Shown here one piece after another: positions 24,408 through 49,831 of a stretch of 64,000 nucleotides of DNA. Position 1 is the stretch's first letter; every line of letters begins with the position of its first letter. Where the stretch lies: the UHGV virus genome UHGV-0242533; one strand, given 5' to 3'. Both the position numbers and the translations under genes were made by a program. Source of the stretch: a virus. Under the pieces are notes generated by a model, which made no database searches, had not been told where the DNA came from, and saw nothing but the letters and a program-made list of their open reading frames with translations.

Positions 24408-24669
24408 ATAGATATTTTAAGAGCAGGTTATCCACAGATATTGGGTAATATCTTTTTGTATTTAAAGCTTGACTCTTTTCGGAGAGTCCTTTTTTAAATT
24501 CAACGAGAGGAAATATGTCTAAATTAGATTTAAAACTGCTAGCAGCAGCGATAGTGATTTGTGCACTAGCACTGGTAACGCAGAGAACATCTGGATTTAT
24601 TCAGTGTTTCTTTTCTGGGCAATCCACTTATCAGTGGGTTATTGACGAGTGTAAACAACAGGAGTAAGT

Positions 24670-25032
24670 ATGAATACACGTCCCATCAAGGGCAACGTTA
24701 ATATTGAAACTCTGAACAAGGTTGCATCAAACCTCGGTGGAATGTCCAACGATGAGCTTGAGCAAGAACTTGCTTGGATTGCAAATGGTATCAAAGTTGC
24801 TAAAGGTAAGATTGCTCGTGAGCAAAGCAACATGAAAGCTCACAAGTATGTCATCCGTCATGCAAACATGTTACCAGAACGGGTTGTACATCTTGCCCGT
24901 AAAAGCTACGCAGATGCAAAGAAAGCTCTGGAAGAAGCTACTTTCCAGAAGCATCAATTTATGAACAACTATCGAAACTTCCGAGATATTCTCTATATCC
25001 GTAAATCGATTGAGTTAATTAAAAACCAATAG
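24670..25032 (+). CDS. Hypothetical protein (120 aa), first gene of enzyme cluster
   Basis: ORF track. Confidence 0.5.
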   Translation: MNTRPIKGNVNIETLNKVASNLGGMSNDELEQELAWIANGIKVAKGKIAREQSNMKAHKYVIRHANMLPERVVHLARKSYADAKKALEEATFQKHQFMNNYRNFRDILYIRKSIELIKNQ

Positions 25033-25043
25033 AGGCTGGTATA

Positions 25044-26240
25044 ATGTTTCCAGTAACATTAGAAGATACTGAAGGTAATGTTTTAACGGTCAACCCTCCT
25101 TGTTATGGGTTCCTTCAACTTCGCAACTATAATGGTGGCGTTGATGAAGACGACGAAGATGATGACTACTTCGACCCTAACATGTATGAGGCAACTCATG
25201 GATGGAATATGCACGTTCGAGTGTGGCATGAAGAAGCTAACGTTCGTAGTGCTGATGGGGAAGAGTTCCTGTTAAGCCGAGAGATGGATATGTGTAAAAT
25301 CAAGCATATCTGGAACTCTGGAACTCATATGAAGATGTTAGGTTTTAGACGTTGGCGTGATGAAAAGCATGTAGCTGAAGCTTTAAGTTGGTGTTCGTAT
25401 GAAGATGAAGACACGCCCCCTAAGAATAACATTGAACGTTGGAACGACAAAAATCCTGAACATCAAACCACACCTCGTGCTGTACTGGAAGCTATGGAAG
25501 CATTTGTGGACAAAGATCGTCCCTCCTGTTTACGCTGGCACGATAAAGGTTTTATGGGGGTAGCAACTGAAAATGTTCCTGCTGATCGTTGTCTATTCTA
25601 TTTGATGTTAGATCGAACCTTCTATTGTGAAGATGAAGAGAGTCAAGTTGAAACCTTCCTCCACAAATGGTTGGTTGAAGGCTGGACAATCCTTCAGGCT
25701 TATGTTTACTCACGAATGGTTAGCACTTACACTAACCTCTTAGGGGAAACGAAAGCAACTCTGGTTGGTAATGATTGGGATGCTTGTATCTTCCCAGCGT
25801 CGCTGTTTACAGTCGGCATGGCTGATAAATACGCTGAAGCATTTCAAGTGCCTTGGCGTCAACAGTCATACAGAGATGGATGCGGTCACTTTCGTGATGA
25901 AGACTTTAAGTGGATTCATTATGAGAACGACGAAACAGCAGAATTGCGAGTTAACAACTCAATGTTCTTGCCAGTGATGCACCCCGATCTAGTAAAAGAT
26001 GGGTCAGAGATACTTAAAGGTGATAATCTTTTGGTTAACTTTACCCGTCGCGTGTCTAAAAATGAGAGAACAGCTAACAGGTTAATCTACGGCATTCGTG
26101 CCGAGGCTAAAGACCTGTTCAACATCTACAACATTGTTCAGCGATTTAGTAGTGGAACTCTGGACCAAAGTTCGGAGTATTCAGTGATTCCGTCCTCTGA
26201 GTGGGATGGTATTATGAGCGGATTATATTTAGGAAAATAA
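25044..26240 (+). CDS. Hypothetical protein (398 aa) in amidoligase cluster
   Basis: ORF track; acidic N-terminal stretch; no recognised motif. Confidence 0.55.
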   Translation: MFPVTLEDTEGNVLTVNPPCYGFLQLRNYNGGVDEDDEDDDYFDPNMYEATHGWNMHVRVWHEEANVRSADGEEFLLSREMDMCKIKHIWNSGTHMKMLGFRRWRDEKHVAEALSWCSYEDEDTPPKNNIERWNDKNPEHQTTPRAVLEAMEAFVDKDRPSCLRWHDKGFMGVATENVPADRCLFYLMLDRTFYCEDEESQVETFLHKWLVEGWTILQAYVYSRMVSTYTNLLGETKATLVGNDWDACIFPASLFTVGMADKYAEAFQVPWRQQSYRDGCGHFRDEDFKWIHYENDETAELRVNNSMFLPVMHPDLVKDGSEILKGDNLLVNFTRRVSKNERTANRLIYGIRAEAKDLFNIYNIVQRFSSGTLDQSSEYSVIPSSEWDGIMSGLYLGK

Positions 26241-26250
26241 AAGGTTAGTT

Positions 26251-27222
26251 ATGTCAATCTCCACAACGATCGTACCTCTTAATCTTCAACAAGATTTAGG
26301 GGAACAGAAGTTCTTAGGTCGTGGGTGCTTCGGTATCCACAACTACATGCAAGGCCAGTGTGTAAATGACATTAATGGTGAAGTTATCACGGAAGAAGGG
26401 CGCTATCGTCGCTTCAACCGCGATATCAACTTGCAACTGGAGATGTTGAATTACTGGACTCACTCTTTTCATGGTCATGTTACATCTGATATTGAAAAGA
26501 ATTTGGTTGAAACAGCAGACATTATGAACTCCATGTCTTGCTATCGTGACGTATTTACGATCACTTCAGCGAATAGTGTTGCTGTCAACCTTCGTGAGCA
26601 TCCAGCAGATCAGATCTTCACAGGACTTATGCTTTTCCGTAGCATTCTGGAAGGGCAGTATCGTGGAATGGATTTCCTATCAGAAGGAATTGAAGACAGG
26701 GAAGAGTGGCTGAAGCGTAAACGCATCGGCATCGCTCTAGTGTTAGCTGGGTTGGGTCGTGACTTCTTCGGTGGATGGTCTCAACGAGGAAGAGCCAATG
26801 GGAGTAGCGAGAGCACCTCTATTGTTATTAACAACAATATGTCAGCAGCAGCATTCCTTCCTTTGGTTGTAGACTCTGATGAATACACGAAGCAAGTATG
26901 GGTTCAAAACCCCTTCGGTGTTGGCGACAACGAGAATGGTTATGTTCGTAACCATAACCAAGATGCCTTACGAAGATTTGCTCGTGCTAAAGATCAAGAC
27001 CCGGACGAGTATGAAACAATGTCAGAGTGGTTAAGACTCTGGTCCAACTGTTATGGTCACAAACGTGAAGCAATAGACGACAAGTTGGGAAACATTACAG
27101 TACAAAACTTTACAGCCCGACTGATTCAAAGAACTGGAGCAGATTCCGGTCTTACTCTTGAAGAAGTTGGTAACACAATCTCATCTCTCTTTTCTGAACT
27201 AGTGGAGTATTACAATGACTAA
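26251..27222 (+). CDS. Hypothetical protein (323 aa) in amidoligase cluster
   Basis: ORF track. Confidence 0.55.
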   Translation: MSISTTIVPLNLQQDLGEQKFLGRGCFGIHNYMQGQCVNDINGEVITEEGRYRRFNRDINLQLEMLNYWTHSFHGHVTSDIEKNLVETADIMNSMSCYRDVFTITSANSVAVNLREHPADQIFTGLMLFRSILEGQYRGMDFLSEGIEDREEWLKRKRIGIALVLAGLGRDFFGGWSQRGRANGSSESTSIVINNNMSAAAFLPLVVDSDEYTKQVWVQNPFGVGDNENGYVRNHNQDALRRFARAKDQDPDEYETMSEWLRLWSNCYGHKREAIDDKLGNITVQNFTARLIQRTGADSGLTLEEVGNTISSLFSELVEYYND

Positions 27223-28021
27223 GCGCAAATTCCTTATCGGCTCTGACCCTGAAATGTTTGTTCGTACTAGCAATGGTATCATCACTTCTGTAGCCGGTTT
27301 ATTAGGCTGCTCTAAGGACGATAAGATCGCTCTGGCTAAGGATGTTCGTCTCCAAGAGGACAACGTACTGGCTGAGTTTGATATTGACCCACAGAGCGGT
27401 TTTGAAGCGTTTAACGATAACATGCAACGTGGTATTGATCTCACCAATAATGTCCTGAACAAACTGGACATGGAAACAGCTCCGGGTGTTAGCTCTCACA
27501 TCTTCACTGAAGAAGAGATGAAGACCTTTAATGAATCAGCGTTCATCTTCGGGTGCACTCCTGATTTCAACGCCTTCACTGGTCAGAAAAACCCATCCCC
27601 GACTTCTCAGAATAAGGGACTTCGTACTGCCGGTGGTCACGTACATCTTGGCGTAGTTGGTGCTTTGGATATCACTCTGCAAACTCAGATGATGCTGGGT
27701 GTGTTGTGTGACTACTTCCTGTCTCTCCCAGCAGTAATTATGGACAAAGATACTCGCCGTAAAGAACTCTACGGTAAAGCATCTGCAATCCGTTATAAAG
27801 ACTATGGTATTGAATACCGTTCTCTGTCTAACTTCTGGATTAGTGATCGTGAAAACCGTAAGTTTGTTTACGATCAGGTTGACAAGGTTGTTCAGCAGTG
27901 TGATATGTCCACCCTGATGGCATTGCACTCTCGCCTTCCGATTGAGAAGCTTCATGAAATCATTAACGGGAACAACGTTAAAGAAGCTGACCAGCAGATC
28001 AAACTCCTTCAGGTAGCATAA
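27215..28021 (+). CDS. Putative carboxylate-amine ligase (GCS2/amidoligase-like), 268 aa
   Basis: N-terminal GSDPEMFV acidic motif and GGHVHLG motif, reminiscent of the glutamine-synthetase-like carboxylate-amine ligase fold; weak. Confidence 0.35.
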   Translation: MTKRKFLIGSDPEMFVRTSNGIITSVAGLLGCSKDDKIALAKDVRLQEDNVLAEFDIDPQSGFEAFNDNMQRGIDLTNNVLNKLDMETAPGVSSHIFTEEEMKTFNESAFIFGCTPDFNAFTGQKNPSPTSQNKGLRTAGGHVHLGVVGALDITLQTQMMLGVLCDYFLSLPAVIMDKDTRRKELYGKASAIRYKDYGIEYRSLSNFWISDRENRKFVYDQVDKVVQQCDMSTLMALHSRLPIEKLHEIINGNNVKEADQQIKLLQVA

Positions 28022-28030
28022 GAGGTTATC

Positions 28031-28648
28031 GTGAGCTTAGTAGCTGATTTTTCTCATTACTATAATGGTACATGGATTGCTAAACGAGCAGGCAATATCA
28101 ACCTTCCGTGTTTTGTGATTGGTGTTGAGCAGAGCGGTAACTTCCGCAGCGATGACTTCTCGCATGAAGCAGAACAGGCTCTGTATTTTGTTGTAGAGCA
28201 GTGGTACAAGAACGAGCATGGGAATCTCCGAAACACTACGATGAATATTCCAGTGTTCGACCCAACCTTGATTCTCGAATCACCTGATGTTGGTTATCTG
28301 TTCCATAACGGTAACACTGTAAGCTGGACTCATATCAATCCTGTTCGTCAGAGAGCGAAGGGTTTGATGGGTAACAAGATTCGAAACGCTCCGGGGATTG
28401 GTCGTTCGATCTCTGGTGAAATGGTTTACAGTCTGTTCAATCCTGAATTTGATGGATTGGTTACTCGTTATATTTACATCAATCCTACAGATGGTAAAGT
28501 GCATTATAAAGGTGCACTGGTAGGTCAGGTAGATCTGGAAGCGCCTCGTGACTCTTACGGTCAACAACCGATGCGACTTCTGGAACATTTTCATCACATC
28601 TCTGAAAACCTTAGCAATTATAATATTACGTTGGTGGATTCGTTATGA
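28031..28648 (+). CDS. Hypothetical protein (205 aa)
   Basis: GTG start with RBS agaggt. Confidence 0.45.
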   Translation: MSLVADFSHYYNGTWIAKRAGNINLPCFVIGVEQSGNFRSDDFSHEAEQALYFVVEQWYKNEHGNLRNTTMNIPVFDPTLILESPDVGYLFHNGNTVSWTHINPVRQRAKGLMGNKIRNAPGIGRSISGEMVYSLFNPEFDGLVTRYIYINPTDGKVHYKGALVGQVDLEAPRDSYGQQPMRLLEHFHHISENLSNYNITLVDSL

Positions 28649-29748
28649 CAACTGTAGCGCAAACTTTTGGATATCGAGAAGGTCGTTTAACTGAGGCGCA
28701 TAGTTCAATTGCACTTCAGTGCGGTGTCGGTATTGAACTTGAACTCGAAGGTTCTGAACATATCGAAGCAGATATGTGGGATTGCACAGAGGATGGTTCC
28801 CTGCGTAACGGTTGTGAAATGGTATGTTCACGACCTTACAACGGACAGGAGTTGTTAGACGCTATCAACAACCTGAGTGAAGCAGTAGCTGAATCGCACG
28901 CCGAGGGGACTTGGCGTTGCTCTACTCACGTTCATATGGATATGAGGGATGCTGATAGTAATATCCTCAAGAAGACCATCCTTGCTTGGACCTTCTATGA
29001 AAAGATGCTGTTCAAGTGTTCAGGCTACCATCGTTACCGTAGCAATTTCTGCCCTGCGTTTGCAGTGGTACAAGCACAGGTAATGAATGCCTCTGACGCA
29101 TTTAACTACGATGGTGAAGAATTCTTCAACCGTCTGGTTCGTTCATGGGATAAATATACATCTCTGAACCTTCTGCCACTTGCCCAATACGGTTCAATTG
29201 AGTTCCGTATCAGTGAGCCTAAGTGGAAACGTGGTCAACTTCTCAATCTGGTTAACCGCTTCTTGATGTTGAAGAAGCTGGCTTTAGATAACGCAGATAT
29301 GAGCAATGATCAGTTTATTGAGCACTTAAATACTGTACGATTTGCCCCAATGCTTCCCTACCTTCCTCTGGATTACAATCTGGATGAATCTGATTTGCAT
29401 TCAGGATATTGTATGGCCCGTGATGTTTTGTATTGCCGTTCTCATGAAGTAGAACAGTCTGGTCGTATTCGTTTACGTAGAACTAACTCCAACGGAGATG
29501 TTCTTGTTGACTTACGTCATATGTCAGACTTCTACGGATTCCTTGGATATGTCCGAGGGAACGCTAACAATTTGTACCAAGAGATTCTGGTTATGCTTCG
29601 TACAGCAGACCTATCTCAAGTAAGACACGCTCCAGAACAGCGTATCCGTGCTATTTTTGACTTACTGCGTGAGTCAGGTCACAGTGATAGCAATATCACA
29701 GGGTACATTCCAGACCATCTGGAAAATCAGTTAGAGCAAGCGCTGTAA
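28645..29748 (+). CDS. Putative amidoligase / carboxylate-amine ligase, 367 aa
   Basis: GIELELEG and STHVHMDM motifs, parallel to the upstream ligase-like protein; weak. Confidence 0.35.
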   Translation: MTTVAQTFGYREGRLTEAHSSIALQCGVGIELELEGSEHIEADMWDCTEDGSLRNGCEMVCSRPYNGQELLDAINNLSEAVAESHAEGTWRCSTHVHMDMRDADSNILKKTILAWTFYEKMLFKCSGYHRYRSNFCPAFAVVQAQVMNASDAFNYDGEEFFNRLVRSWDKYTSLNLLPLAQYGSIEFRISEPKWKRGQLLNLVNRFLMLKKLALDNADMSNDQFIEHLNTVRFAPMLPYLPLDYNLDESDLHSGYCMARDVLYCRSHEVEQSGRIRLRRTNSNGDVLVDLRHMSDFYGFLGYVRGNANNLYQEILVMLRTADLSQVRHAPEQRIRAIFDLLRESGHSDSNITGYIPDHLENQLEQAL

Positions 29749-29827
29749 TCAATGGGTGCCTCTGACAAAGGGGCACAATTTAAAGGTTAATTAGATGAAA
29801 GGGTTTACCCTTCAGGTGGATTAGAAA

Positions 29828-31858
29828 ATTTGTGGCATCGTATTAGCTGGCGGTAATCTGTCAAGCACTGATTTAGACGTATTCAACCAACTCTTTTATG
29901 CTGGAGTATTCCGAGGACAACATTCCTCCGGCATCTTTGGTCAGCGTAAAAGCACTAAGGAAGTCTTCACTTATAAAGAAGCTCTTCCTTCTTTCGCATT
30001 CATCCTACAAGATGAGTACAAGAAGCATACCACTGGTGAAACAGCTTACACTGTAGCACCTTCATGGATTGTTGGTCACAGTCGTCATGCAACGAAAGGT
30101 GCAGTTAACGCCAAGAACGCCCATCCTTTCCAACATGGTAACATCACTCTGGTTCATAATGGAACCTTGATGGACCAAGACCTGTTACCTGACAGTAAAA
30201 ACTTCGAGGTAGACAGTGAGAACATCTGCCACTCTATTAACACTATTGGTGCAGCAGAGACTATTCAAAAGCTGGATGGTGCTTTCACCTTAATCTGGCA
30301 TGATGCTTCTGATAACCGTCTTCATATCATCCGTAACGAAGAGCGTCCATTCCATCTCGCACGTTGTAACAGAGATTGGTTTGGTGCTTCTGAAGAAGAC
30401 ATGTTGATGTGGATTCTGAAGCGTTCTAGATCTCACAAGAACCGTATTGATGAGCATTTTGAATGTAAAGTTGGTACAGAATATATCTTTGATATGTCAA
30501 ACAACAGCATGACTCTGGTTGAAGAGGTCGCCCACGAGCTTCCGGTTTTTACGGTAATCAATCGTTGGGGCAATTACTACTCGAACAACTACAGCCAAAG
30601 CAACTATCAAAGTTCCTCAAAAAGCAATACAAGCAATCCTTACGACACGAAGCCGGGAGTGACAGCGGCAGACGTTCGTCGAAGAAACGCAGTGGTAAGT
30701 CAAAACAAAATCGCAAGCGATCGAAACATTGATATTCGCCGTGATATGACTGTGGAAATCACACCACATGAGTTTGTTCCTTATGCAGCTGCTGGTGCTG
30801 TTCCTTCTCGTGGTAAGATGATCGGTTATATCTACGATGAGAAGTCTCAAGAGTATATCGAAGGTGATGTTCATAATGTAGACATTAAGGCTTATCAGGA
30901 TGCACTGAAAGACCCTAAAATTGTTTACCGTGGAACAGTATCCTGCATCTCCGAAGTTAATGCTATGGTTCGTTTAGTGATCACAGCAGGTCGTTTTGTT
31001 GACCCATCTCTGGAGAAAAAGGAGCCTGAGTCTACTACTGCTGACTTTGATGATGATATCCCTTTTGACATGAATGATAGTTTCGTCAACAAGAATGGCG
31101 TTACTATCACTCGTAAATTCTGGGAAGCACACTCTCATGGTGACTGTGGTGGTTGTGACAAACACATTGATTGGAAGGACGCACCTAAAGCAGTCTTCGC
31201 ATATCAGTGCTACTGGCATCCTGAATGTCTGGAAGGTTTGACTAAACCTAAAGAGGAAGAAGAGGAGGAAACTCCTATTGGTGTTTGTGAAATCTGCGGT
31301 GAAGTTAAAACAGAGAATGAGTTCGATGATGAACTTAGTCGTCTTCGTGGTGAAGATATCTGTAAAGTCTGCGCTGTAGAAGTAAAGAAGAAAGTATCTA
31401 ATGCTACGATCAAAGATGGTTATGTATGGATTAAAGCAACAGATACAACAAACGCCCGTCGTCCTGAATTTGCTTTACGTGTAACTGAAGATATGATTGG
31501 TCGTATGACTGTATTACCTTCCTCAGCGAAACAGACAGGCATCACTCTGGAGGATGTTGTTGATGCTTATGTTGAGAAACGTAGCAACAGTATTTTTGCA
31601 ATCTCAACTAAGCCAAAAAAGGAGGAACCTGCTGAGAAAGCAGGTGTGTTTCCTGAATCACGAACAGCTCTCCGAAAAACTGTTGTCAGCTTCGACGGAA
31701 ACCGAAGCACTGACTTCACCAAAGCCATGTGGTCAACCCTCGGATACTGCTCAGAGTGTTTTAAGCAGATTCCGTGGCGCGATGCTGAAAGTTGTACGCT
31801 TGGTTCTATGAATCAAGTTTATTGTAATTCTCCTAAATGTTCATTGAATAGAGGTTAA
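29828..31858 (+). CDS. Class-II (Ntn) glutamine amidotransferase domain fused to C-terminal multi-zinc-ribbon domain; probable AUU start
   Basis: Translation from 29828: (I/M)CGIVLAGG...FRGQHSSGIFG...VGHSRHATKGAVNAKNAHPF...ITLVHNGTL, matching PurF/GlmS-type motifs. An in-frame TAG at 29822 leaves ATT as the only start that exposes the Cys; SD AGGTGGA is 7 nt upstream. C-terminal half has several CxxC pairs. Confidence 0.7.
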   Translation: MCGIVLAGGNLSSTDLDVFNQLFYAGVFRGQHSSGIFGQRKSTKEVFTYKEALPSFAFILQDEYKKHTTGETAYTVAPSWIVGHSRHATKGAVNAKNAHPFQHGNITLVHNGTLMDQDLLPDSKNFEVDSENICHSINTIGAAETIQKLDGAFTLIWHDASDNRLHIIRNEERPFHLARCNRDWFGASEEDMLMWILKRSRSHKNRIDEHFECKVGTEYIFDMSNNSMTLVEEVAHELPVFTVINRWGNYYSNNYSQSNYQSSSKSNTSNPYDTKPGVTAADVRRRNAVVSQNKIASDRNIDIRRDMTVEITPHEFVPYAAAGAVPSRGKMIGYIYDEKSQEYIEGDVHNVDIKAYQDALKDPKIVYRGTVSCISEVNAMVRLVITAGRFVDPSLEKKEPESTTADFDDDIPFDMNDSFVNKNGVTITRKFWEAHSHGDCGGCDKHIDWKDAPKAVFAYQCYWHPECLEGLTKPKEEEEEETPIGVCEICGEVKTENEFDDELSRLRGEDICKVCAVEVKKKVSNATIKDGYVWIKATDTTNARRPEFALRVTEDMIGRMTVLPSSAKQTGITLEDVVDAYVEKRSNSIFAISTKPKKEEPAEKAGVFPESRTALRKTVVSFDGNRSTDFTKAMWSTLGYCSECFKQIPWRDAESCTLGSMNQVYCNSPKCSLNRG

Positions 31859-31860
31859 GT

Positions 31861-32094
31861 ATGGAAATTCGTAAGATGATGCTGGATAATGTTGTAACTA
31901 CTCGACGTATCCCGATGACGAGCACAGGATGTGACAACCTTCGTGCAATCCAGAAGTGGATGCAAGCTGGTATTGGTCAAGTACTTGAAACACAGGTTGA
32001 GGTTCCTTTCCCAACGGTGATCAACAACGTGCTTGCTGATTATGTAAAAATCAAAGGCATTAAGGTAGAACCTCATGTCAAATCTGGTTCCTAA
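31861..32094 (+). CDS. Hypothetical protein (77 aa)
   Basis: ORF track. Confidence 0.45.
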   Translation: MEIRKMMLDNVVTTRRIPMTSTGCDNLRAIQKWMQAGIGQVLETQVEVPFPTVINNVLADYVKIKGIKVEPHVKSGS

Positions 32095-32299
32095 GAAACC
32101 AAAGATCACTCTCCTACAGTATTACATGGGAGTTCATATCGAATTAGTAACGGAGCAGCGAAAGCTGTATCCGTTCGCTTTCGGTCTGATTGATGCACCA
32201 TCCGATGAAGTAGAGAACGATGCGTTCAACGACTACTTCGAAATTGAAGCTCAGATTCAAAAAACTCGTAACGAAATTCTTAAACTTAAAGGTATCTAA
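32075..32299 (+). CDS. Hypothetical protein (74 aa)
   Basis: ORF track. Confidence 0.4.
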   Translation: MSNLVPKKPKITLLQYYMGVHIELVTEQRKLYPFAFGLIDAPSDEVENDAFNDYFEIEAQIQKTRNEILKLKGI

Positions 32300-32301
32300 C
32301 A

Positions 32302-33495
32302 ATGACTACTCGTATCCGTGTTCTTCCTTATGGTCCTTCTGATTCAGTTCGTGAACTTACTTCTGCAATTAACACTAAGATTCAGGAACTTCGCTTAAAC
32401 GCTAACGTAATGTCTCTGGTATCAGAAGGCTCTCGTTATCGTTCTCGAGTTGGTGATATTGTTGTCAACTATGGAAACCGTCGATACAATGATTCTTTCT
32501 TTGGTGGGGCAACTGTATTGAACTCTGTGGTTGCCTTGAACCGAGCAGCTAATAAGATTGCAGCATTTAACGCATTGCGTTTAGCTGAAGTTAAAACTGT
32601 TGAATACACCACTGATCGTGAATTAGCTCTGAACTGGAACCAGAACGAAATTGTTTACGAACGTGCAACATTAACTGGTCACTCTGGTGAAGGTATCACT
32701 GTTCGTCTTCCGACAGAAGGTGTTGCAGATGCCCCTCTATACACCAAAGGTATTCAAGGCCCACGTCGTGAATGGCGTGTTCATGTATTTGAAGGTGTTA
32801 TCACTTACGTTCAGAAGAAGATTCGTCGTAATGGATACCGTGATCTGTCAACCTATCGTGAAGACATTCGCAATCACCATACTGGTTGGGTTTATTCCTC
32901 AAACTTCCAAGATGCACCACCTCCTCAAGTATTGATTCAAGCTCACAAAGCTGTAGAAGCTCTTGGATTGAACTTTGGTGCTGTTGATCTAATAAGCAAA
33001 GTTTCTAACGCTTGGGTTCTGGAAGTAAATACTGCTCCTGGGCTGACTGGTACAACTCTGGAAACTTACACTCATAATATTGTTGAGTTTGTTAAGAGCT
33101 TCTCTGGAGTTGATCCTGATTATCGTGTTGCTTACGAACTGCCTGTTGAAGAAGTGGAAGAGTTTGCTGAATCAGCAGATGACGAGAACTTTGCATTGAC
33201 AGCTGAACCAGTTGTTGAAGAGTCTTCGGAGCCTGTTCCTGAAACAATGCAAGTGGAAGAACAAGGGTTAGAGATCAACCCTGTCACCCGTCGTACTTTA
33301 CGTCGTGGTTATTACATCGCTAATATCAAGCACCCTGAGAATGGTTCAACTGTAGCAAGTAATGTGATCTTGTTCTTCTGTGGTCGTAACTTCTACCGCT
33401 CTGGGTGGAACGCACCGATTAGTGATCGCCAGCTTGGTCGTGTGTTGCAGATTAACAGTCTTACTCTGAATGATGGCACTGTTGTAAACTACTAA
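32302..33495 (+). CDS. ATP-grasp family ligase (397 aa)
   Basis: C-terminal motif AWVLEVNTAPGLTG (ATP-grasp E-x-N signature) plus RimK-like core. Confidence 0.6.
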   Translation: MTTRIRVLPYGPSDSVRELTSAINTKIQELRLNANVMSLVSEGSRYRSRVGDIVVNYGNRRYNDSFFGGATVLNSVVALNRAANKIAAFNALRLAEVKTVEYTTDRELALNWNQNEIVYERATLTGHSGEGITVRLPTEGVADAPLYTKGIQGPRREWRVHVFEGVITYVQKKIRRNGYRDLSTYREDIRNHHTGWVYSSNFQDAPPPQVLIQAHKAVEALGLNFGAVDLISKVSNAWVLEVNTAPGLTGTTLETYTHNIVEFVKSFSGVDPDYRVAYELPVEEVEEFAESADDENFALTAEPVVEESSEPVPETMQVEEQGLEINPVTRRTLRRGYYIANIKHPENGSTVASNVILFFCGRNFYRSGWNAPISDRQLGRVLQINSLTLNDGTVVNY

Positions 33496-33501
33496 GGATA
33501 T

Positions 33502-33750
33502 ATGGATATGTTTTCATTGGAAGATCTAGTACAAAATGGAATGATGGAACAAAAAGAGCCTCTTATTGTAGGCTCTCGTAAAGAGTTGCGTAAATTGTGC
33601 GAGGAGTGGGGTATTACTAATCAGCGAATGGTTGGTAATCAATTCTCTGCAATTGTAACTTTCCTAAAACGTGGTGATAAATACTCTATGGAATGTGTAG
33701 AACGTATCATCACTGAAGCACAACAAGACAAAGGAGTAACATATCTATGA
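33502..33750 (+). CDS. Hypothetical protein (82 aa)
   Basis: ORF track. Confidence 0.45.
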   Translation: MDMFSLEDLVQNGMMEQKEPLIVGSRKELRKLCEEWGITNQRMVGNQFSAIVTFLKRGDKYSMECVERIITEAQQDKGVTYL

Positions 33751-33932
33751 ATAAGTATAAAGTTCTGTTTAAAGATACCAATGCCGCTGGTGAAATGCGA
33801 GCTATGGACCTAGATGCTGACATGTTTAACTTCTCTGATGGCAAAGTGGCCTTCTTTCAAGGAAGTGAAGCCGTTGCAGTGTTTGAGAGTGCAGCAATCT
33901 GTGGTGTAATCAAAATCTTTATTACAGAGTAA
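33747..33932 (+). CDS. Hypothetical protein (61 aa)
   Basis: ORF track; overlapping start/stop. Confidence 0.4.
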   Translation: MNKYKVLFKDTNAAGEMRAMDLDADMFNFSDGKVAFFQGSEAVAVFESAAICGVIKIFITE

Positions 33933-33986
33933 TCTGCTTTAGCCTCTTCGAAAGAGGGGGCTAGTTTGGATAAACTGGAGAATATA

Positions 33987-34166
33987 TGAAACTTTTTGAT
34001 GAAAAACACAAAAAGCAAATGGAAGACAACTCTAAGAAGTTGGAATCCAATCTTCGTAAACGTGTAGCCCAAGGCTCGGATGGTTCTCTGTTCGGAAATA
34101 TCGGATACTCTTTTGCCAAGAATCTTTTACATAGTATGGAAACCAGAAAAGTGATAAAGAAATAAA
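33987..34166 (+). CDS. Small hypothetical protein (59 aa; below cutoff)
   Basis: ATG with upstream purine-rich region; own translation. Confidence 0.3.
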
Positions 34167-34224
34167 ACAGTTTTCTTTATCTACAACTCATGAACAAATT
34201 ATTTAACATAGAAAGGTATTTAAA

Positions 34225-34644
34225 ATGTCAGAAGTAATTTACGTAGCAACTTATGGTTCTCTTCGTCGTGGTCAAGCTAACTATTTAGTTAATGATCGAG
34301 CTGGTGCTAAGTCTATTGGCGAGGGTTGGACTGAAGATAACTTCGATCTGTTCCGTTACGGTGGTTCCTACTTCCCGAGCATCTCTCTCGCACACAGCAA
34401 TAGCAATAAGCCTGTTCGTGTAGAAGTGTTTGCTACTGACAAAGCAGGTCTGGAAGGTCCATATGACCGACTGGAAGGTTACAACAAACGTAGCCCTGAA
34501 GACAGCTTCTATCAGCGTACTCAGATTGCTGTTAAGATGGACTCAGGTGAAACTGTTATCGCTTGGATTTATCACATTGACGAAGAACAAGATGTTCTGG
34601 TCGAATCTGGCGACTGGTCAGAGTATCTGAAAAGTGAATCTTGA
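34225..34644 (+). CDS. Gamma-glutamyl cyclotransferase-like (AIG2/GGCT fold) protein
   Basis: N-terminal YVATYGSLRRG motif and size of about 140 aa. Confidence 0.55.
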   Translation: MSEVIYVATYGSLRRGQANYLVNDRAGAKSIGEGWTEDNFDLFRYGGSYFPSISLAHSNSNKPVRVEVFATDKAGLEGPYDRLEGYNKRSPEDSFYQRTQIAVKMDSGETVIAWIYHIDEEQDVLVESGDWSEYLKSES

Positions 34645-34863: not shown

Positions 34864-36354
34864 ATGTCAAAGATCATTTTGGGAGACACAGGTTGTAAGG
34901 AATGTATCTCTCATGGTCGTGATAAAACCCACAACCACATGATTCTCTTCCGTAACGAAGAGACAGGTGAGGAGTGGGGGAGTTGTAACCGTTGTGGGAA
35001 TTACGAAGTGTTCGAAAAGGGCACTACACCTACTCCAAACGAGAAGAAAGAGCTATCCCCTGAAGAGTTAAGAGAAGTCTTAGACGATTGCTTAGAGCTT
35101 CCTCAGGGTGAACTTACTCGACGTTTAATCCCTAAAGCCGTATCAGAGCGTTTTGAGTGTCGAATTGGTCTAAGTCAGACTGATGGTCAGACTCCAGACA
35201 GCTACTTCTTTCCTCGTGAACGTGATGGAAACATTGTCGGTTATGAGGTTAAGCTGCTTGACAGTAAGAAGTTCTATTACGTTGGCAGTGTGAAAGAAGC
35301 AGATTTATTTGGTATGGCACAGGCTCAGCGTGGAGATGTGTACAACAAGAAGCTGTTCATTTTTGAAGACCCGCTATCCTGTATGTCAGGTTTCCATGTC
35401 CTTACAGCTTTTACAAATGCAACAAACATTAAACCAGCATGTGTTTCTTTACCGTTCGGTGCAGGTTCAATCTCTTCTGTGTTGTCTCGTAATCGAGACT
35501 TCGTAAATGGTTTTGAGGAGGTTGTGCTCTGCATGGACAATGACGATGCAGGTGAGATAGCTTTAACAAAAGGTCGTTCTTTATTCCCTCATGTCAAGTT
35601 TGCTCGTATTCCTAAAGGAACCTTCCCATACAACGGTGTGGAGAAAGAGATTAAGGATGCGAATGACATGCTTCTGTCTGGTCGTGGTCAGGAGTTATTC
35701 AACATTCTCAAGTATTCAGCAAAGCGAGAATCTCCTGCTGGCGCTGTAACAATCTTTGATTGCCTTGATGATGCTCTGAAGAAAGCGGAGTGGGGTATTC
35801 CATATCCGTGGAAGACTCTGAATGAGATGACCTTTGGTATTCGATGGGGAGAGGTGGTAGCAATCGGTGGTGGTGTAGGTAGTGGTAAGACACTAATTGC
35901 TCACGAGCTGGTTGCTCATCTGTGCTTAGAGCATGGTTTTAATGGGGGTGGCTTCTTCTTGGAAGAGAAGGTAGGCATGTCTGTTAAGAACATCGCTGGT
36001 AAGTCAGCATCAATTCCTTTCCACCGACCTGATGTTGAATATGATGAGGAGGATTTGCGTAATGAAGCACTTCGTTATGCAGACAAATTCTTCTTGTATG
36101 ACAACTTCGGACAGAATGAATGGGAAGACATTAAACAGTGTATCCGTTTCTGGGTAGTTGAAAACCAGTGTAAGTTCATCATCCTTGATAACATTACCGC
36201 TCTGGTATCTCATTTAACACCTTCAGAGATTAACACTGAAATCAGTAAGATTGCTTCAGAGCTTGCTGGTATGTGTAAAGAGTTAGACTTTACCGCTTTC
36301 GTTCTATCTCACCTTAATGCTCCGGCAGGTGGTGCTCCTCATGAAGAGGGTAAG
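34864..36354 (+). CDS. T7 gp4-like primase-helicase, exon 1
   Basis: Zn-ribbon CKEC...CNRC, Toprim-like VVLCMDNDDAGE, Walker A GGGVGSGKT; ends at SHLNAPAGGAPHEEGK then stop, matching the T7 gp4 H3 region. Confidence 0.75.
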
Positions 36355-37147
36355 TAACAAGCCCTCTATAAATTCTGTGAACTCAGGGGAACTCTAGAAC
36401 AGACAATCCTGAGCTAAGCCTAGTAATAACCCTCCTATAAGGAGGTAATATGAAACAGTATCTTGGAAAATATACGGTTCATAAAGATGGACGAATAATC
36501 AGTCACTATAACGGGAAGCCTTTAACCATCTCTCTTTACAAACCAAATAAACAGGGTAAGAAGATTGTTTATCCTAGAGTTAGGCTCTGTATTGACGGGA
36601 AAGGTAAATGGTTTGCACTACACAGGATTATAGCTGAATGCTATATCCCAAATCCAGAAAATCTTCCACATATAAACCATAAAGATGGAAACAGATTGAA
36701 TAACTCTGTTGAAAATCTTGAATGGTGCAGTCATCTACAGAATATACGGCATGCCCAAGAACACAACCTCAACCCTAAAGGAGAGAGGCAAGGTATTGCA
36801 GTTGCAACTGAAGAGATTGTAAGGAGAATTAGAAGTTTAAGAAGGGGTGGTATGTCTTATAAAGATATCGCTGAGCTTGTTAAACTTAAGAGAAGAACAG
36901 TCGAAGCTATTGGTTCTTATCAAAACTGGAAACACATAGAGTGAGTGGTTATTACTAGGAAAGTGCAACGACTAGGGTGGGCGTAAGCCCGAAGTACAGC
37001 CAAGCGGTGTCATTAACATTGACTTAAATGGAAGCGCAGAACCTTCAAATTGAAGTGAAGATATAGTCTGGTCTACATGGGGACATGTAGCAGTTCAGAG
37101 ATAGAACCTGAACGGGGTGTGATTAGCGATCACATCTGAACACAACG
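36352..37147 (+). mobile_element. Putative group I intron carrying an HNH endonuclease ORF (boundaries approximate, +/- 3 nt)
   Basis: Helicase frame interrupted by a stop; the downstream in-frame segment continues the gp4 homology; U at the 5' junction and G at the 3' end fit group I splice-site rules. Confidence 0.55.
36450..36944 (+). CDS. HNH homing endonuclease (164 aa), intron-encoded
   Basis: HINHKDGNRLNNSVENLEWCSHLQN motif; strong SD taaggaggt. Confidence 0.75.
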   Translation: MKQYLGKYTVHKDGRIISHYNGKPLTISLYKPNKQGKKIVYPRVRLCIDGKGKWFALHRIIAECYIPNPENLPHINHKDGNRLNNSVENLEWCSHLQNIRHAQEHNLNPKGERQGIAVATEEIVRRIRSLRRGGMSYKDIAELVKLKRRTVEAIGSYQNWKHIE

Positions 37148-37450
37148 GGACAGGTACGTGAAGTACAGTTCACTGGCTCTCGTTCTCTTATGCGTTGGTG
37201 TCAGTGTATCATTGGCTTTGAGCGTGACAAGCAAGCTGACGGCTTAGCTAAGAACCTCTCAGTCATTCGATTACTGAAAGAACGTAACTACGGTCAGACA
37301 GGTGTTTGTTATACTAAGTATATCAGTGAAACCGGTAGACTTGTAGAAAGGGAAGACTTTGAAGTTGATGAAGATAATCCATTCGTTTTAACTAACGGAG
37401 AGGATGCAGCTTCTCTCGTCAACCAAGCAGATGGAGCTTCACCGTGGTAA
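37148..37450 (+). CDS. Primase-helicase exon 2 (C-terminal helicase segment and acidic tail)
   Basis: In-frame translation from about 37148: [29 protein letters not shown]...[15 protein letters not shown]...YISETGRL..., colinear with the T7 gp4 C-terminus. Confidence 0.6.
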
Positions 37451-38001
37451 AGAAAAAGAAGAAAGTGTTTGCATTCGATATCGAGAGTAATGCACTGTAC
37501 GATGACATAACTAAAGTATGGTGTATTTATATCTTTGATGTTGAAACTGGTGAAAGGTGGGGCTATCGGCCTCACCAAATTGAAGATGGGATTCATAAAC
37601 TTACAGAAGCAGATGTGCTCGTGGGTCACAATATTATTGACTTCGACCTTTGTGCTCTGAAGAAAATGTATCCCAATCTAATTGAATATCGTTTTAACGT
37701 CTTTGACACTTTATGTCTTAGTCGATATCTTAAACCTGACCGTATTGGTGACAGTCCTGAGTATCCGAAAGGCGACCCTAGACATGGCCCAAGAGGTCAT
37801 GGCTTGAAGCAATGGGGTGAGTTCTTAGGGGAACTTAAAGGTGATTACGGTGAGCAAGAGGAAGCATGGGATGCTTTCACTGAAGATATGTTTACTTATT
37901 GTGAACAGGACGTTAACTTAACTGTTAAGGTTTATCTTTTCTTGTGTGAACTCACGGGATTTGACCCTTACGACCCACCTTCATTATATTGGAAAATGTA
38001 A
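37444..38001 (+). CDS. DnaQ-like 3'-5' exonuclease domain protein, separate from the polymerase gene
   Basis: Exo motifs FAFDIES, HNIIDFD, YCEQDV. Confidence 0.6.
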
Positions 38002-38002
38002 A

Positions 38003-39373
38003 ATGATTGTTATCCCGATTAACCGAATTGAAGATAAGGTTGCTCAACAACCTGATATTGCTGTTGGTCGTCACTTCATTGAACAGTTGATTAACAACAA
38101 CTTGGTTCCAGACGGTATCTGTCCCATCATTACTGGTGGGGCTGTTCGAGATGCTGTGCTTAATAACACAGCTCCACATGACATTGATATCTTTATTGTC
38201 AGAGGACAAACACCAAGAACTCAAAACACATTCATCCCAACTGATCGTTGGCAAGCTCTTGGAAGAGAGATTGAAAGTAATGTGAAGGAATGGCTAGAGT
38301 CACAAGATATCGAATATGCATCCCTTCTTGCTGAAGCTACAAACGAATCCTATGCTGGGGGTTCTCAATTAACATTCACTGATATTATTGAGTTTCAGTG
38401 GAATGGAACCCGCATTCAATTCATGTTTAATTATCCTACTTCTATTGAAGAGGTATTGGATAATTTTCCTATGATGTGCCGTGGTGCGATAACTCTTGAC
38501 AGCTTATTCATGACCCCTCATGGATATTTAGCTATGACCGCTCCTTGCCCTGTGGTTGTTTCTAGTCGTGAAATCAGATACGTTCACAAGAAGTGGCCTA
38601 ATTCACAGGTATTAAGATTCTCCGCTCCATCTGTTGCATATCAATATATGGCACAAACTCGATACCTTCCTACACCTCAACCAGTTAGTCATCTGGTCAA
38701 CGAACGAGGTCAGGTTGCTCCTGTTGAGGATACAACAAGTGCTCAATATTGTGTTAACCGAGACATGAGTCGATTCTTTGGAATCCCTTACGAAGAAATT
38801 CAGTTAATGTCAAGTGTTCATGGCTCTGGTCAGATTCGTGCGTATTGGTCTGAAGGGTTGACGAATTTAACAACTAATACAGGAGGGGATCTCCTTGGTC
38901 GAGAAGAGGAACCTAACCGACACAATGCAATTGAAGGGGTGTTTGTAGCCCCTGCAATGCGTCGAGCACAAGAGTCACGAAGAGTAAGCCCTACTCGTAG
39001 AACATCTTTTGAAGAGGCTCTTGGTGTTACTAGCGATTCATTTGAGCAGTGGTTGTCTAGACGTTCTAATGGTCTGTCAAATGGTTTGACTGCTAGCCGT
39101 CACCAGTTCTCTGGTCAGGGTTTTGCTGTTGGTGATATTGACCAAGCTGCTCGTGTTATATGGACTGATGAAGCATCTGCTCAAGATGTGGTTAATAATC
39201 TCGCCGATCTTGATATTCCTTCTCATGGCGAGCTAGCTGAGACTGTCAGTCGTAGTCTCGCTGATCGCTTTGTTGCTGATAACCCTGAAGTATTAGAGCC
39301 TCAAACCAATACAATTAGTGTTGCTGACGTAGTTGGTGATGGATTCTCTTTTTACGCACGAACAAATAACTAA
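38003..39373 (+). CDS. Nucleotidyltransferase of the CCA-adding / poly(A) polymerase family (456 aa); internal ATG chosen
   Basis: N-terminal GGAVRDAVL...HDIDIFIV matches the GGxVRD...DxD head-domain signature. Confidence 0.5.
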   Translation: MIVIPINRIEDKVAQQPDIAVGRHFIEQLINNNLVPDGICPIITGGAVRDAVLNNTAPHDIDIFIVRGQTPRTQNTFIPTDRWQALGREIESNVKEWLESQDIEYASLLAEATNESYAGGSQLTFTDIIEFQWNGTRIQFMFNYPTSIEEVLDNFPMMCRGAITLDSLFMTPHGYLAMTAPCPVVVSSREIRYVHKKWPNSQVLRFSAPSVAYQYMAQTRYLPTPQPVSHLVNERGQVAPVEDTTSAQYCVNRDMSRFFGIPYEEIQLMSSVHGSGQIRAYWSEGLTNLTTNTGGDLLGREEEPNRHNAIEGVFVAPAMRRAQESRRVSPTRRTSFEEALGVTSDSFEQWLSRRSNGLSNGLTASRHQFSGQGFAVGDIDQAARVIWTDEASAQDVVNNLADLDIPSHGELAETVSRSLADRFVADNPEVLEPQTNTISVADVVGDGFSFYARTNN

Positions 39374-39382
39374 GGAATAAGA

Positions 39383-39916
39383 ATGAGTTTACTAGGAAGT
39401 GTTGAACTGCATGATGTAATTGACAATGGCTATCTGGATGCGGAGCATAAGTATGTTAACGCTGCTAGTGTGGATATCCGTATTGGTGATACTATCCTTG
39501 TTGAAGAACAGGCTGATGGCATCGTTGATATTGATGCGAAAGAGAATCTTCAGTGGAAGGAAGTAAAGATTCCTGAAGAGGGTTTGGTTATCACTCCGGG
39601 TCAGTTCTTCTTGGCTCACTCTATGGAAGAGTTTAATCTTCCAGATAACATCTCAAGTCTGTTTGTCCTGCGTTCGTCTATGGCTCGTTGTGGTTTGAAC
39701 CACCTTCACGCCGGTTGGGCAGATGCAGGATTTAATAGCAGTAAGCTGACATTTGAATTCCATAACGTAACCAAGCACCACAGTTTACGAGTTCGTGCTG
39801 GTATGCGTGTAGGTCAGATGGTAATGTTTGAGCACTCTCATGCAGGGGAACACTCCTATGCAGTGAAGGGTCGTTATAATAACTCTGAAGGTGTAGTTGC
39901 ATCTAAAGGTGTGTAA
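39383..39916 (+). CDS. dCTP deaminase / dUTPase superfamily protein
   Basis: ASVDIRIG and GWADAGFN motifs; 177 aa. Confidence 0.65.
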   Translation: MSLLGSVELHDVIDNGYLDAEHKYVNAASVDIRIGDTILVEEQADGIVDIDAKENLQWKEVKIPEEGLVITPGQFFLAHSMEEFNLPDNISSLFVLRSSMARCGLNHLHAGWADAGFNSSKLTFEFHNVTKHHSLRVRAGMRVGQMVMFEHSHAGEHSYAVKGRYNNSEGVVASKGV

Positions 39917-49084: not shown

Positions 49085-49831
49085 ATGAGCATGATTCCAA
49101 CTATCGCAACTTCTTCCCGTAAGTCCAACTACGATGTAATCCCTGATGGTGAGTACGAAGCACGTATTGTTCGTGTAGTAGGTTTGGGTGTTCACAATCG
49201 TGACCCTTGGATTGACCCGAAGACCAAAGCAGTAACTCCTAAGAATCCAGCTTTCCGTATGGATTTAGCTTTCGAGCTGATTGGTGTTGATGCTACTGGT
49301 AAAGATTCCGATGGTAAGGCATTAGAACCACGTCCGGCTTGCCAGTTCAAGAGCTATGATGTAAACCCACGAGCTAAGAACTCTGGTATTCTTGATCTTT
49401 GCAAGATGATTGACCCAAGTATTCAAGCACTGAAAGGTGATCTGTCTTGGTTCAAGGATGTTCTGTTAGGACAGCCTGTTAACATTCTGGTTAACTCTTA
49501 CACTAACAAAGCTGGTGAAGTTAAAAACTCCATCAAAACCATTTCTCCAATCCCAACCAAATATCGTGCAGCAGTTGGTGAAGCTCGTAGTCCTCTGGTA
49601 TTCTTCGAACCGTATGCTGAAACCGATGAGAACGTAGCATCCTATCAACTGATGTTCCCGTTCCAGCGCAACCTGCTTACCCAAGCTAATGACGCTAAGA
49701 ACATGCCTCTGGCTGGTCGTGAAATTACTCGTGCTTCTGAGACAGAACAGAAAGAAGCTACTCCTTCAATCCCTACGATTGATAAAGAGCCTGCTTCTAC
49801 TTATGAAGACGACAACGATTCGCCTTTTTGA
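49085..49831 (+). CDS. Putative single-stranded DNA-binding protein (acidic C-terminal tail)
   Basis: C-terminus ...STYEDDNDSPF resembles the SSB acidic tail (DDDIPF type); call rests on the tail motif only. Confidence 0.4.
   Translation: MSMIPTIATSSRKSNYDVIPDGEYEARIVRVVGLGVHNRDPWIDPKTKAVTPKNPAFRMDLAFELIGVDATGKDSDGKALEPRPACQFKSYDVNPRAKNSGILDLCKMIDPSIQALKGDLSWFKDVLLGQPVNILVNSYTNKAGEVKNSIKTISPIPTKYRAAVGEARSPLVFFEPYAETDENVASYQLMFPFQRNLLTQANDAKNMPLAGREITRASETEQKEATPSIPTIDKEPASTYEDDNDSPF

Follow-up and report, generated by a model that had tools for sequence, protein, structure and literature searches.

A phiEco32-type amidoligase cassette in a Kuravirus genome: conserved core, mostly viral distribution, and a tentative role in gamma-glutamyl/amide assembly

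What does a lytic phage make with two amidoligases, an ATP-grasp ligase, a glutamine amidotransferase, and a gamma-glutamyl cyclotransferase (GGCT) encoded within 10 kb of one strand? The question is raised by positions 24,670 to 34,644 of a stretch of 64,000 nucleotides (hereafter, the window) of the UHGV virus genome UHGV-0242533. The cluster is the already-known phiEco32-type phage amidoligase cassette, and the window holds its type example. We tentatively read the cassette, with somewhat less than even confidence, as a small-molecule gamma-glutamyl/amide assembly system—a short, non-ribosomal, ATP-driven route to an amide-linked product. New here are the definition of a cassette core, the pattern in which GGCT and a second gamma-glutamyl-removing enzyme (Peptidase_C26) occur, the near-restriction of the ligase Lig2 to viral or phage-sized contigs, a structural model of the accessory protein X1, and the ATT start codon of the amidotransferase gene.

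Among phage records, 99 matched the 10-kb cluster and 66 of these cover at least 80% of it; the best nucleotide matches—KM01, FS2B, SU10, and phiEco32—are ~96% identical (95.6-97.5%) over 98% of its length. On the strength of this identity to KM01, SU10, and phiEco32, we assign the window to a phiEco32-like podophage of the genus Kuravirus (Gordonclarkvirinae). Gene content and order are those of phiEco32 gp77-gp89, with which the cluster is collinear (running from gp89 to gp77), and by this comparison it is not a chance arrangement and is kept in phiEco32-like phages. All open reading frames (ORFs) of an initial annotation, made from the letters alone, were found on the + strand where they had been placed, and hidden Markov model (HMM) searches upheld every enzyme family it had named: two ligases, an amidotransferase, an ATP-grasp protein, and a GGCT. 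These enzymes, with one further protein of the core, are encoded as follows:

27215..28021, + strand: Lig2, COOH-NH2 ligase type 2 (glutamine-synthetase/GCS fold; PF14395, phrog_3815)
28031..28648, + strand: X3, core protein of 205 amino acids (aa), gp85 equivalent; its stop overlaps the Lig1 start
28645..29748, + strand: Lig1, Amidoligase_2 (glutamine-synthetase fold; PF12224, phrog_7469)
29828..31858, + strand: class-II (N-terminal nucleophile, Cys1) glutamine amidotransferase with a C-terminal domain and zinc ribbons; ATT start
32302..33495, + strand: ATP-grasp ligase (RimK/MptN/Ddl-like), followed by an acidic linker and a C-terminal domain of 82 aa
34225..34644, + strand: gamma-glutamyl cyclotransferase, GGCT (GGACT/AIG2 fold; PF06094)

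Lig2 is the signature gene of the cassette. Its product matched PF14395, 'Phage phiEco32-like COOH.NH2 ligase-type 2', a family that takes its name from the phiEco32 protein, at E 2.3e-8 (34 bits; Pfam cut-off 25) and phrog_3815 at 3e-118, with residues E13, E54, R137, H142, H144, E200, and R202 kept in 40 non-redundant homologues. Lig1 likewise matched PF12224 at E 4.5e-8 (33.7 bits; cut-off 22) and phrog_7469 at 8e-159, and its conserved residues are E31, E33, E35, R54, E58, R91, H95, H97, E186, and R188. The Pfam matches of the ATP-grasp ligase fall under cut-off (Dala_Dala_lig_C, 3e-3, 17.4 bits against 24; RimK, 0.013), and its assignment is supported by phrog_2599 (1e-184) and by the NCBIfam models for MptN (3e-8) and the RimK family (1e-6); an NCBIfam D-Ala-D-Ala-ligase match (4.7e-5) is equalled or bettered by those to RimK/MptN. 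Residues K85, R121, E157, K173, D229, E241, and N243 of this protein, of the type that binds ATP and Mg, are conserved, and residues 316-397 match phrog_20552. Across 20-60 non-redundant members of each family, catalytic-type residues are at least 85% conserved in Lig1, Lig2, the ATP-grasp ligase, and GGCT.

The amidotransferase matched GATase_6 at 1.1e-14 (55 bits; cut-off 27) and GATase_7 at 3.6e-6, and the R, HNG, and DSE motifs of the glutamine site are present. Its gene is readable only from an ATT codon at 29828, directly 5' of the catalytic Cys codon and preceded at 8 nucleotides by an AGGTGG Shine-Dalgarno sequence (start region, 29814-29833), and a program-made list of ORFs therefore gives just a TTG start at 30167. 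Cys follows the start codon immediately in 90 of 91 homologues, where the codon before it is ATG in 77, ATT in 8, ATC in 1, GTG in 2, and another in 2; the eight ATT-Cys loci belong mostly to the Kuravirus clade. Such a weak start codon may hold expression of the amidotransferase low. The family architecture consists of the glutamine amidotransferase domain, a middle domain of ~100 aa, and a first zinc ribbon; the conserved C-terminal domain measures ~200 aa and includes one ribbon. In the window, the C-terminal part carries four CxxC and one CxxxxC, which read as three zinc-ribbon-like motifs, and the two additional ribbons are Kuravirus-specific. We found no synthase domain of any known type in this protein; an asn_synth match (1.4e-4) spans only the amidotransferase domain.

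GGCT matched PF06094 at E 4.3e-17 (63 bits; cut-off 22.8), with the YGSL motif and the catalytic-type residue E84 conserved. In other lineages it is replaced by a Peptidase_C26 gamma-glutamyl hydrolase, a class-I GATase-like enzyme (Pfam 9.5e-17). We clustered the ORFs of 101 cassette loci and took presence counts from the 42 that were fully flanked. GGCT occurs in 21 of the 42 and C26 in 14, and the two rarely coincide—GGCT alone is found in 19 loci, C26 alone in 12, both in two, and neither in nine. Judged by this pattern, the two enzymes look like functional alternatives, and its near-exclusive character suggests a pathway that requires removal of the gamma-glutamyl group by one enzyme or the other. 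The initial annotation had described the cluster as a toolkit that builds or trims amide and gamma-glutamyl bonds, a description that the comparative data strengthen, C26 being a third type of gamma-glutamyl-cleaving enzyme. As a separate observation, the C26 gene lies 5' of the Lig2 gene in about one third of cassette phages (loci L003, L004, and L008 and 32 further loci), mostly without GGCT.

Five genes form a universal core. The fully flanked loci contain Lig1 in 42/42, the amidotransferase in 42/42, the ATP-grasp ligase in 41/42, and X3 in 39/42, so that X3, invariably found between Lig2 and Lig1, counts as a core component. The core order is Lig2-X3-Lig1-GATase-ATP-grasp, at ~0, +0.8, +1.4, +2.5, and +3.6 kb from Lig2, and many lineages carry this five-gene core alone. 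LUZ24, PaP3, tf, and UFV-P2 (Bruynoghevirus, Krylovvirus), as well as Zobellviridae, share this core order 5' of the primase/helicase, except that Zobellviridae versions have the amidotransferase 5' of Lig2 and Peptidase_C26 in place of GGCT. The proteins of all these phages are 29-42% identical to those of the window and include no recognisable homologues of the upstream accessory proteins X1 and X2.

Lig2 is widespread among viruses. A tblastn search retrieved 307 phage records spread over many genera, among them that of a crAss-like Cellulophaga phage whose cassette is compact and consists of five genes, and a pattern scan of IMG/VR retrieved 566 relatives. A HMMER search of 1.84 billion cluster representatives (50% identity) gave 4376 matches at E<=1e-3, nearly all of them single-domain proteins of 250-280 aa. 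Among ~100,000 species genomes, by comparison, Lig2 was found in 14 loci, nearly all on short contigs of metagenome-assembled genomes. From these searches Lig2 appears to be largely restricted to viruses, occurring almost only on viral or phage-sized contigs.

How might such enzymes work together? We infer the chemistry of each step, the part played by glutamate, and the small-molecule rather than macromolecular nature of the product from the enzyme types and their pattern of occurrence. Lig1, Lig2, and the ATP-grasp ligase would each turn a carboxylate into an activated acyl phosphate and couple it to an amine, at least one of the resulting joins being a gamma-glutamyl amide. The Cys1 amidotransferase would either deliver ammonia from glutamine to an activated carboxylate or hydrolyse a gamma-glutamyl amide, and GGCT or C26 would then take off the gamma-glutamyl group as 5-oxoproline or glutamate. 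Glutamate would in such a scheme be a temporary handle or protecting group, and up to three ATP-dependent ligations with one amidation or hydrolysis would yield a gamma-glutamyl-type peptide or amine conjugate. The enzymes are presumably cytoplasmic, as their sequences contain no recognisable export-related domain.

Characterised relatives of several of these enzymes act on small molecules that have a free glutamate alpha-amino group and alpha-carboxylate: GGCT/BtrG, C26 (PuuD, gamma-glutamyl hydrolase), and the stand-alone class-II GATases EgtC and Dug3. The same is true of most ligases with the glutamine-synthetase (GS) fold (GS, GshA, PuuA). The superfamilies of the cassette—GS/GCS-fold ligase, ATP-grasp, class-II GATase acting as gamma-glutamyl hydrolase, C26, and GGCT—recur in the GshA/GshB/GGCT, EgtA/EgtC, and PuuA/PuuD systems. 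This mixture, which mirrors pathways that attach and then strip gamma-glutamyl groups, together with the GGCT/C26 pattern, leads us to favour a small amide-linked product. The likeness to the enzymes of the gamma-glutamyl cycle and of glutathione, ergothioneine, and polyamine gamma-glutamylation is at the level of superfamilies, however, with scores far under family cut-offs, and X3 and X1/X2 have no counterpart there. Butirosin biosynthesis offers a second comparison: BtrJ, an ATP-grasp enzyme, adds a protecting gamma-glutamyl group that the GGCT-fold BtrG removes. The presence of an ATP-grasp and a GGCT-fold enzyme in one cluster suggests a similar add-then-remove logic in the cassette, and the homologue in phage tf is annotated 'BtrG-like'. 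The cassette differs from the butirosin cluster in having no acyl carrier protein, PLP (pyridoxal phosphate) decarboxylase, or acyltransferase, and neither the cluster nor the window gave any match to PP-binding or PLP-enzyme families.

Several observations weigh against assembly of a small molecule. None of the cassette enzymes is close to a protein of solved structure: PDB sequences yielded nothing for Lig1 and Lig2 at E<=1, and just weak, partial matches for the amidotransferase and ATP-grasp ligase. The conserved C-terminal domain and zinc ribbon of the amidotransferase could bind a macromolecule. Were this a generic metabolite pathway, it should also turn up in bacteria, yet Lig2 lies almost only on viral or phage-sized contigs; such a restriction would suit just as well a target specific to infection, for instance a macromolecule of the host or the phage. 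The cassette adjoins the primase/helicase, in the replication module, in most of the annotated lineages examined, and Kuraviruses resist restriction-modification systems. Finally, the scheme leaves the universal X3, as well as X1 and X2, without a role. These last proteins, and the small ORFs interspersed with the enzymes, are:

24670..25032, + strand: 120-aa protein (phiEco32 gp89 equivalent), lineage-specific; phrog_11370, 1e-75
25044..26240, + strand: X1, 398 aa (gp88 equivalent), lineage-specific accessory
26251..27222, + strand: X2, 323 aa (gp87 equivalent); its stop overlaps the Lig2 start
31861..32094, + strand: 77-aa protein after the amidotransferase; phmmer matches in phages 7-11 and Vp_R1, alignable with tf_23
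32075..32299, + strand: 74-aa ORF, Kuravirus-specific, in 9 loci
33502..33932, + strand: two small ORFs of 82 and 61 aa, Kuravirus-specific

The proteins of 398, 323, and 205 aa were left unassigned by the initial annotation, and that assessment still holds—X1, X2, and X3 have no match in Pfam, NCBIfam, PADLOC, or PDB sequences, and an X3 profile built from a 25-lineage alignment retrieved nothing from PDB or Pfam. X3 carries the motif RxPxRQW[KR][KR]G (NPVRQRAKGL in the window) and a C-terminal YKGxxVG, and its Kuravirus and general types are homologous (HHalign 99.9%). Its AF2 model is poor (predicted local distance difference test, pLDDT, 57.6), with the lowest confidence in the most conserved segment; the alignment may be too shallow, or this segment may need a partner to fold. 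X1, for which we found 20 homologues with invariant polar residues that include Cys20, His95, Asp181, Arg182, Cys248, His282, Arg284, and Asp285, gave a confident AlphaFold model (pLDDT 88.6, predicted template-modelling score 0.89); it is a conserved protein whose predicted model has no known fold. X1 and X2 are lineage-specific (9-11 of the 42 full loci), and other lineages carry different upstream accessories. A PAD[RQ]xxxxxLMxxR motif is common to X1, X2, and a 306-aa family of other lineages (e.g. L064 9047-9964), at comparable positions, and BFVD contains paired X1-like folds in the GAP52 and Aeromonas LAh_8 phages, the structural matches being modest. The three may form one divergent family of paired proteins. 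A paralogy of X1 and X2 at the sequence level was considered and not established (BLASTP E 0.48; HHalign P 0.18); X2 is possibly a distant paralogue of X1, to which HHalign lends weak support.

Among the smaller proteins, the 77-aa one is kept in position and in sequence, with motifs L[DE]N..xTR[KR]xP[MF]T and IP[FYA]P.VI. Its sequence looks like that of a ribbon-helix-helix protein and could point to a regulator of the cassette; we set aside the idea that it is a carrier or tag, which it resembles less. The 120-aa protein occurs in 9 of the 101 loci and belongs to no Pfam family. We found no Rosetta-stone fusions between cassette proteins, the longer versions of which bear unique extensions, and no relatives of cassette proteins among the known defence systems in PADLOC.

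X3 is central to an explanation in which the cassette tags proteins or peptides, through a glutamyl or peptidyl modification of the kind seen in RimK-S6, PafA/Dop-Pup, and LysX-LysW, with X3 as carrier or substrate or with a host protein as target. X3 is universal and lies between two GS-fold ligases with overlapping stop and start codons, its Lys/Arg-rich conserved segment is not confidently modelled, and the ATP-grasp ligase is nearest to RimK/MptN-type glutamate ligases. PafA and Dop are themselves GS-fold ligases, and the near-restriction of the cassette to viral contigs would suit host takeover. On the contrary side, neither a conserved C-terminal Glu/Gln nor a tail like that of Pup or LysW was seen in any small ORF or X3 homologue, the C-termini of X3 are not conserved, and the low model confidence of X3 may reflect nothing more than its shallow alignment. 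GGCT, C26, and stand-alone class-II GATases, moreover, act on free rather than protein-bound gamma-glutamyl compounds. We consider protein tagging unlikely.

The published description of the cassette is a different one. As reported in the papers that cite it, Iyer et al. 2009 proposed that the phiEco32 enzymes modify the cell wall and so prevent superinfection, a computational prediction; according to Duhaime et al. 2017, Hardies et al. 2013 described a 'seven-gene peptidoglycan modification cassette' common to RIO-1, phiEco32, 7-11, PA11, tf, MR299-2, LUZ24, PaP3, and CW02. 'Peptidoglycan modification cassette' has since become a routine annotation label, and a matching gene order has been tabulated for UFV-P2 and remarked on for one LUZ24-like therapeutic candidate. 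We found no experimental study of the cassette in the literature to mid-2026, in keeping with the earlier remark that such neighbourhoods had been predicted computationally with no defined product.

Remodelling of peptidoglycan precursors (Iyer et al. 2009; Hardies et al. 2013) would have the enzymes build or amidate unusual stem-peptide linkages, blocking superinfection or controlling lysis. The weak similarity of the ATP-grasp ligase to D-Ala-D-Ala ligases (Pfam 3e-3; NCBIfam 4.7e-5) is in line with it. Linkages of the gamma-glutamyl type and amidated ones do occur in stem peptides, where amidation of meso-diaminopimelate is the work of a class-II amidotransferase, LtsA/AsnB1. It is nonetheless a prediction for which we found no experiment in the literature, and the cassette gave no Pfam or NCBIfam match to Mur-ligase, MurT/GatD, or AsnB-synthase domains and none to membrane or export domains. 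Lig2 is mostly viral and has no cell-wall-gene context in cellular genomes; its carriers are lytic phages that devote ~13-18% of the genome to the cassette, within the replication module, and removal of gamma-glutamate by GGCT or C26 has no obvious part in stem-peptide synthesis. Together these points make a cell-wall role, in our judgement, rather improbable.

A nitrogen role has also been proposed for phages with cassette genes in marine and deep-sea hosts, including in a paper on an OM43 phage. The cassette would then boost glutamine and glutamate turnover for nucleotide synthesis and have no dedicated product. Bulk nitrogen flux, however, needs no fixed five-gene order, no two or three cassette-specific proteins, and no three different ligases. 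Nor does any cassette enzyme closely resemble a housekeeping gene of the host: every score is far under the family cut-offs for GlmS, PurF, AsnB, and RimK. We regard this auxiliary metabolic role as very improbable.

Does the cassette instead modify DNA? Here it would add an amino-acid- or peptide-like group to a base, with X1/X2 or X3 supplying a new base-activating step, and would thereby account for the resistance of Gordonclarkvirinae to restriction-modification, which the BASEL 2025 study found to be remarkable and to have no known modification pathway behind it. In the most specific form of the proposal, X1/X2 or X3 would make or recognise a handle on the base and the ligases, amidotransferase, and GGCT would build and trim an amino-acid-derived adduct that shields EcoRI, EcoRV, EcoKI, and EcoP1 sites; the cassette would then be the missing covalent DNA-modification pathway of these phages, unrelated to the 5-hydroxymethyldeoxyuridine (5-hmdU) kinase/transferase route. 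Amidoligase and amidotransferase genes have been reported beside thymidine-hypermodification genes in metagenomic contigs (Lee et al. 2021, PMC8989533), and the zinc ribbons of the amidotransferase, the basic RQW[KR][KR]G motif of X3, and the place of the cassette in the replication module of most annotated lineages examined also speak for it. We also considered avoidance of recognition sites as the cause of resistance and rejected it: the window has EcoRI (11), EcoRV (30), EcoKI (10), and EcoP1I (109) sites in about the numbers expected.

Our Pfam scan took in 74 + strand ORFs from the 10-54 kb part of the window, none overlapping another and each 60 aa or longer. None matched the 5-hmdU DNA kinase (HMUDK; PF18748 / PF18723), the amino acid:DNA transferase or aGPT-Pplase (ADDT; PF18724), Nmad, dUMP hydroxymethylase, TET/JBP (TET_JBP), Thymidylat_synt, or glycosyl- and methyltransferase families. 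As a positive control, the same copy of Pfam strongly detected the hypermodification enzymes of phage M6 (ADDT, 1.4e-46; HMUDK, 7.7e-18; HMUDK_hel, 8e-56; Nmad5, 2e-33). The thymidine hypermodification clusters of M6, ViI, SP10, and PhiW-14 resemble the cassette as phage gene clusters in the replication region and differ from it in their defining enzymes, the 5-hmdU DNA kinase and amino acid:DNA transferase, which were undetected in the window. ThyX, the only thymidylate-synthase-type gene found, has a strong, full-length Thy1 match (1.3e-43) with nothing to mark it as the variant that the initial annotation had suspected. A P-loop kinase at 51523-52137 matched dNMP-kinase-type models only (phrog_139, 1e-40) and gave no HMUDK match; neither Pfam nor a search for DxDxT motifs turned up the HAD phosphatase claimed alongside it.

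Chemistry and restriction behaviour speak against base modification as well. Canonical bases have no carboxylate or alkyl amine on which an acyl-phosphate ligase could act, and many lineages have the five-gene core only. DNA of the cassette-bearing LUZ24-like phage U17 is cut by 11 of 16 restriction enzymes, and that of phage Delta, also LUZ24-like and cassette-bearing, by BamHI. The window strongly avoids CCWGG (6 observed against ~72 expected), CTGCAG (0 against 18), GAGCTC (0 against 12.6), CCATGG (0 against 8), and GATC (137 against 291), which implies that its DNA is exposed to type II enzymes. With no modification-enzyme matches, a positive M6 control, and restrictable LUZ24-like DNA, the amino-acid-type base modification put forward in the initial annotation is not borne out; we think DNA hypermodification by the cassette improbable in general, and the specific form in which it shields the four sites quite improbable. 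Other genes may instead underlie Kuravirus resistance, for example the conserved nucleotidyltransferase next to the dCTP deaminase, a pair that the BASEL authors suggest as a possible source of DNA modification:

37946-39373: nucleotidyltransferase, 457-475 aa, directly 5' of the dCTP-deaminase-like gene; full-length phrog_12715 match
39383-39916: dCTP-deaminase-like gene

The nucleotidyltransferase has a weak PolyA_pol head-domain match (6.8e-4) and is no member of the cassette in other lineages; its neighbour, as first annotated, is dCTP-deaminase-like (DCD, 3.5e-34).

Whether its output proves to be a new metabolite, a modified protein, an altered cell wall, or a novel DNA modification, the cassette, predicted seventeen years ago, is a worthwhile experimental target: it is widespread, Kuraviruses that infect K-12 now exist, and two or three of its families are without known fold or function. 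An answer would reveal what PF14395, PF12224, and two or three orphan families do. The cassette occupies ~13% of the window genome and up to ~18% of LUZ24-like genomes, and several hundred phages with sequenced genomes carry it, from Escherichia, Pseudomonas, Vibrio, Aeromonas, Salmonella, Sinorhizobium, and Cellulophaga, some of them therapeutic candidates. The Kuraviruses Bas86-93 of the BASEL collection plate on E. coli K-12 and show the unexplained restriction-modification resistance; the function of the cassette is therefore directly testable.

The surroundings of the cassette in the window include two further features:

24471..24488, + strand: terminator-like hairpin with a T-run, just 5' of the cluster
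36319-37129 (~810 bp): insert in the primase/helicase gene, with an HNH endonuclease ORF at 36450-36944 (HNH_3, 1.3e-8)

The hairpin is a likely transcription-unit boundary, by its sequence and position. Start and stop codons overlap or are closely spaced across X2, Lig2, X3, and Lig1, and we found no comparably placed terminator-like site on the + strand between the core genes; from this layout the cassette reads as a single transcription unit that runs on into the replication genes. Directly 3' of the cluster are the genes for a primase/helicase, an exonuclease, the nucleotidyltransferase, the dCTP deaminase, and ThyX. Farther along, at 49085-49831, a 248-aa protein of no Pfam family has an acidic tail, DDNDSPF, resembling the tails of single-stranded-DNA-binding proteins.

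Two small differences from phiEco32 stand out in this part of the window. The segment 33977-34211 (235 bp), between the small ORFs and GGCT, has no phiEco32 counterpart, appearing as a gap in the blastn alignment, and holds a 59-aa ORF (33986-34165). The primase/helicase gene downstream of the cassette, unlike that of phiEco32, carries a probable group I intron and HNH gene: its coding sequence is split between 34864-36318 (residues 1-485) and 37130-37447 (residues 482-596, in a different frame), and positions 36808-37090 of the insert match the Rfam group I intron model at 34.6 bits (E 7e-7), under the gathering score. Compared with phiEco32, the upstream exon is 100% identical and the downstream exon 88.7%.

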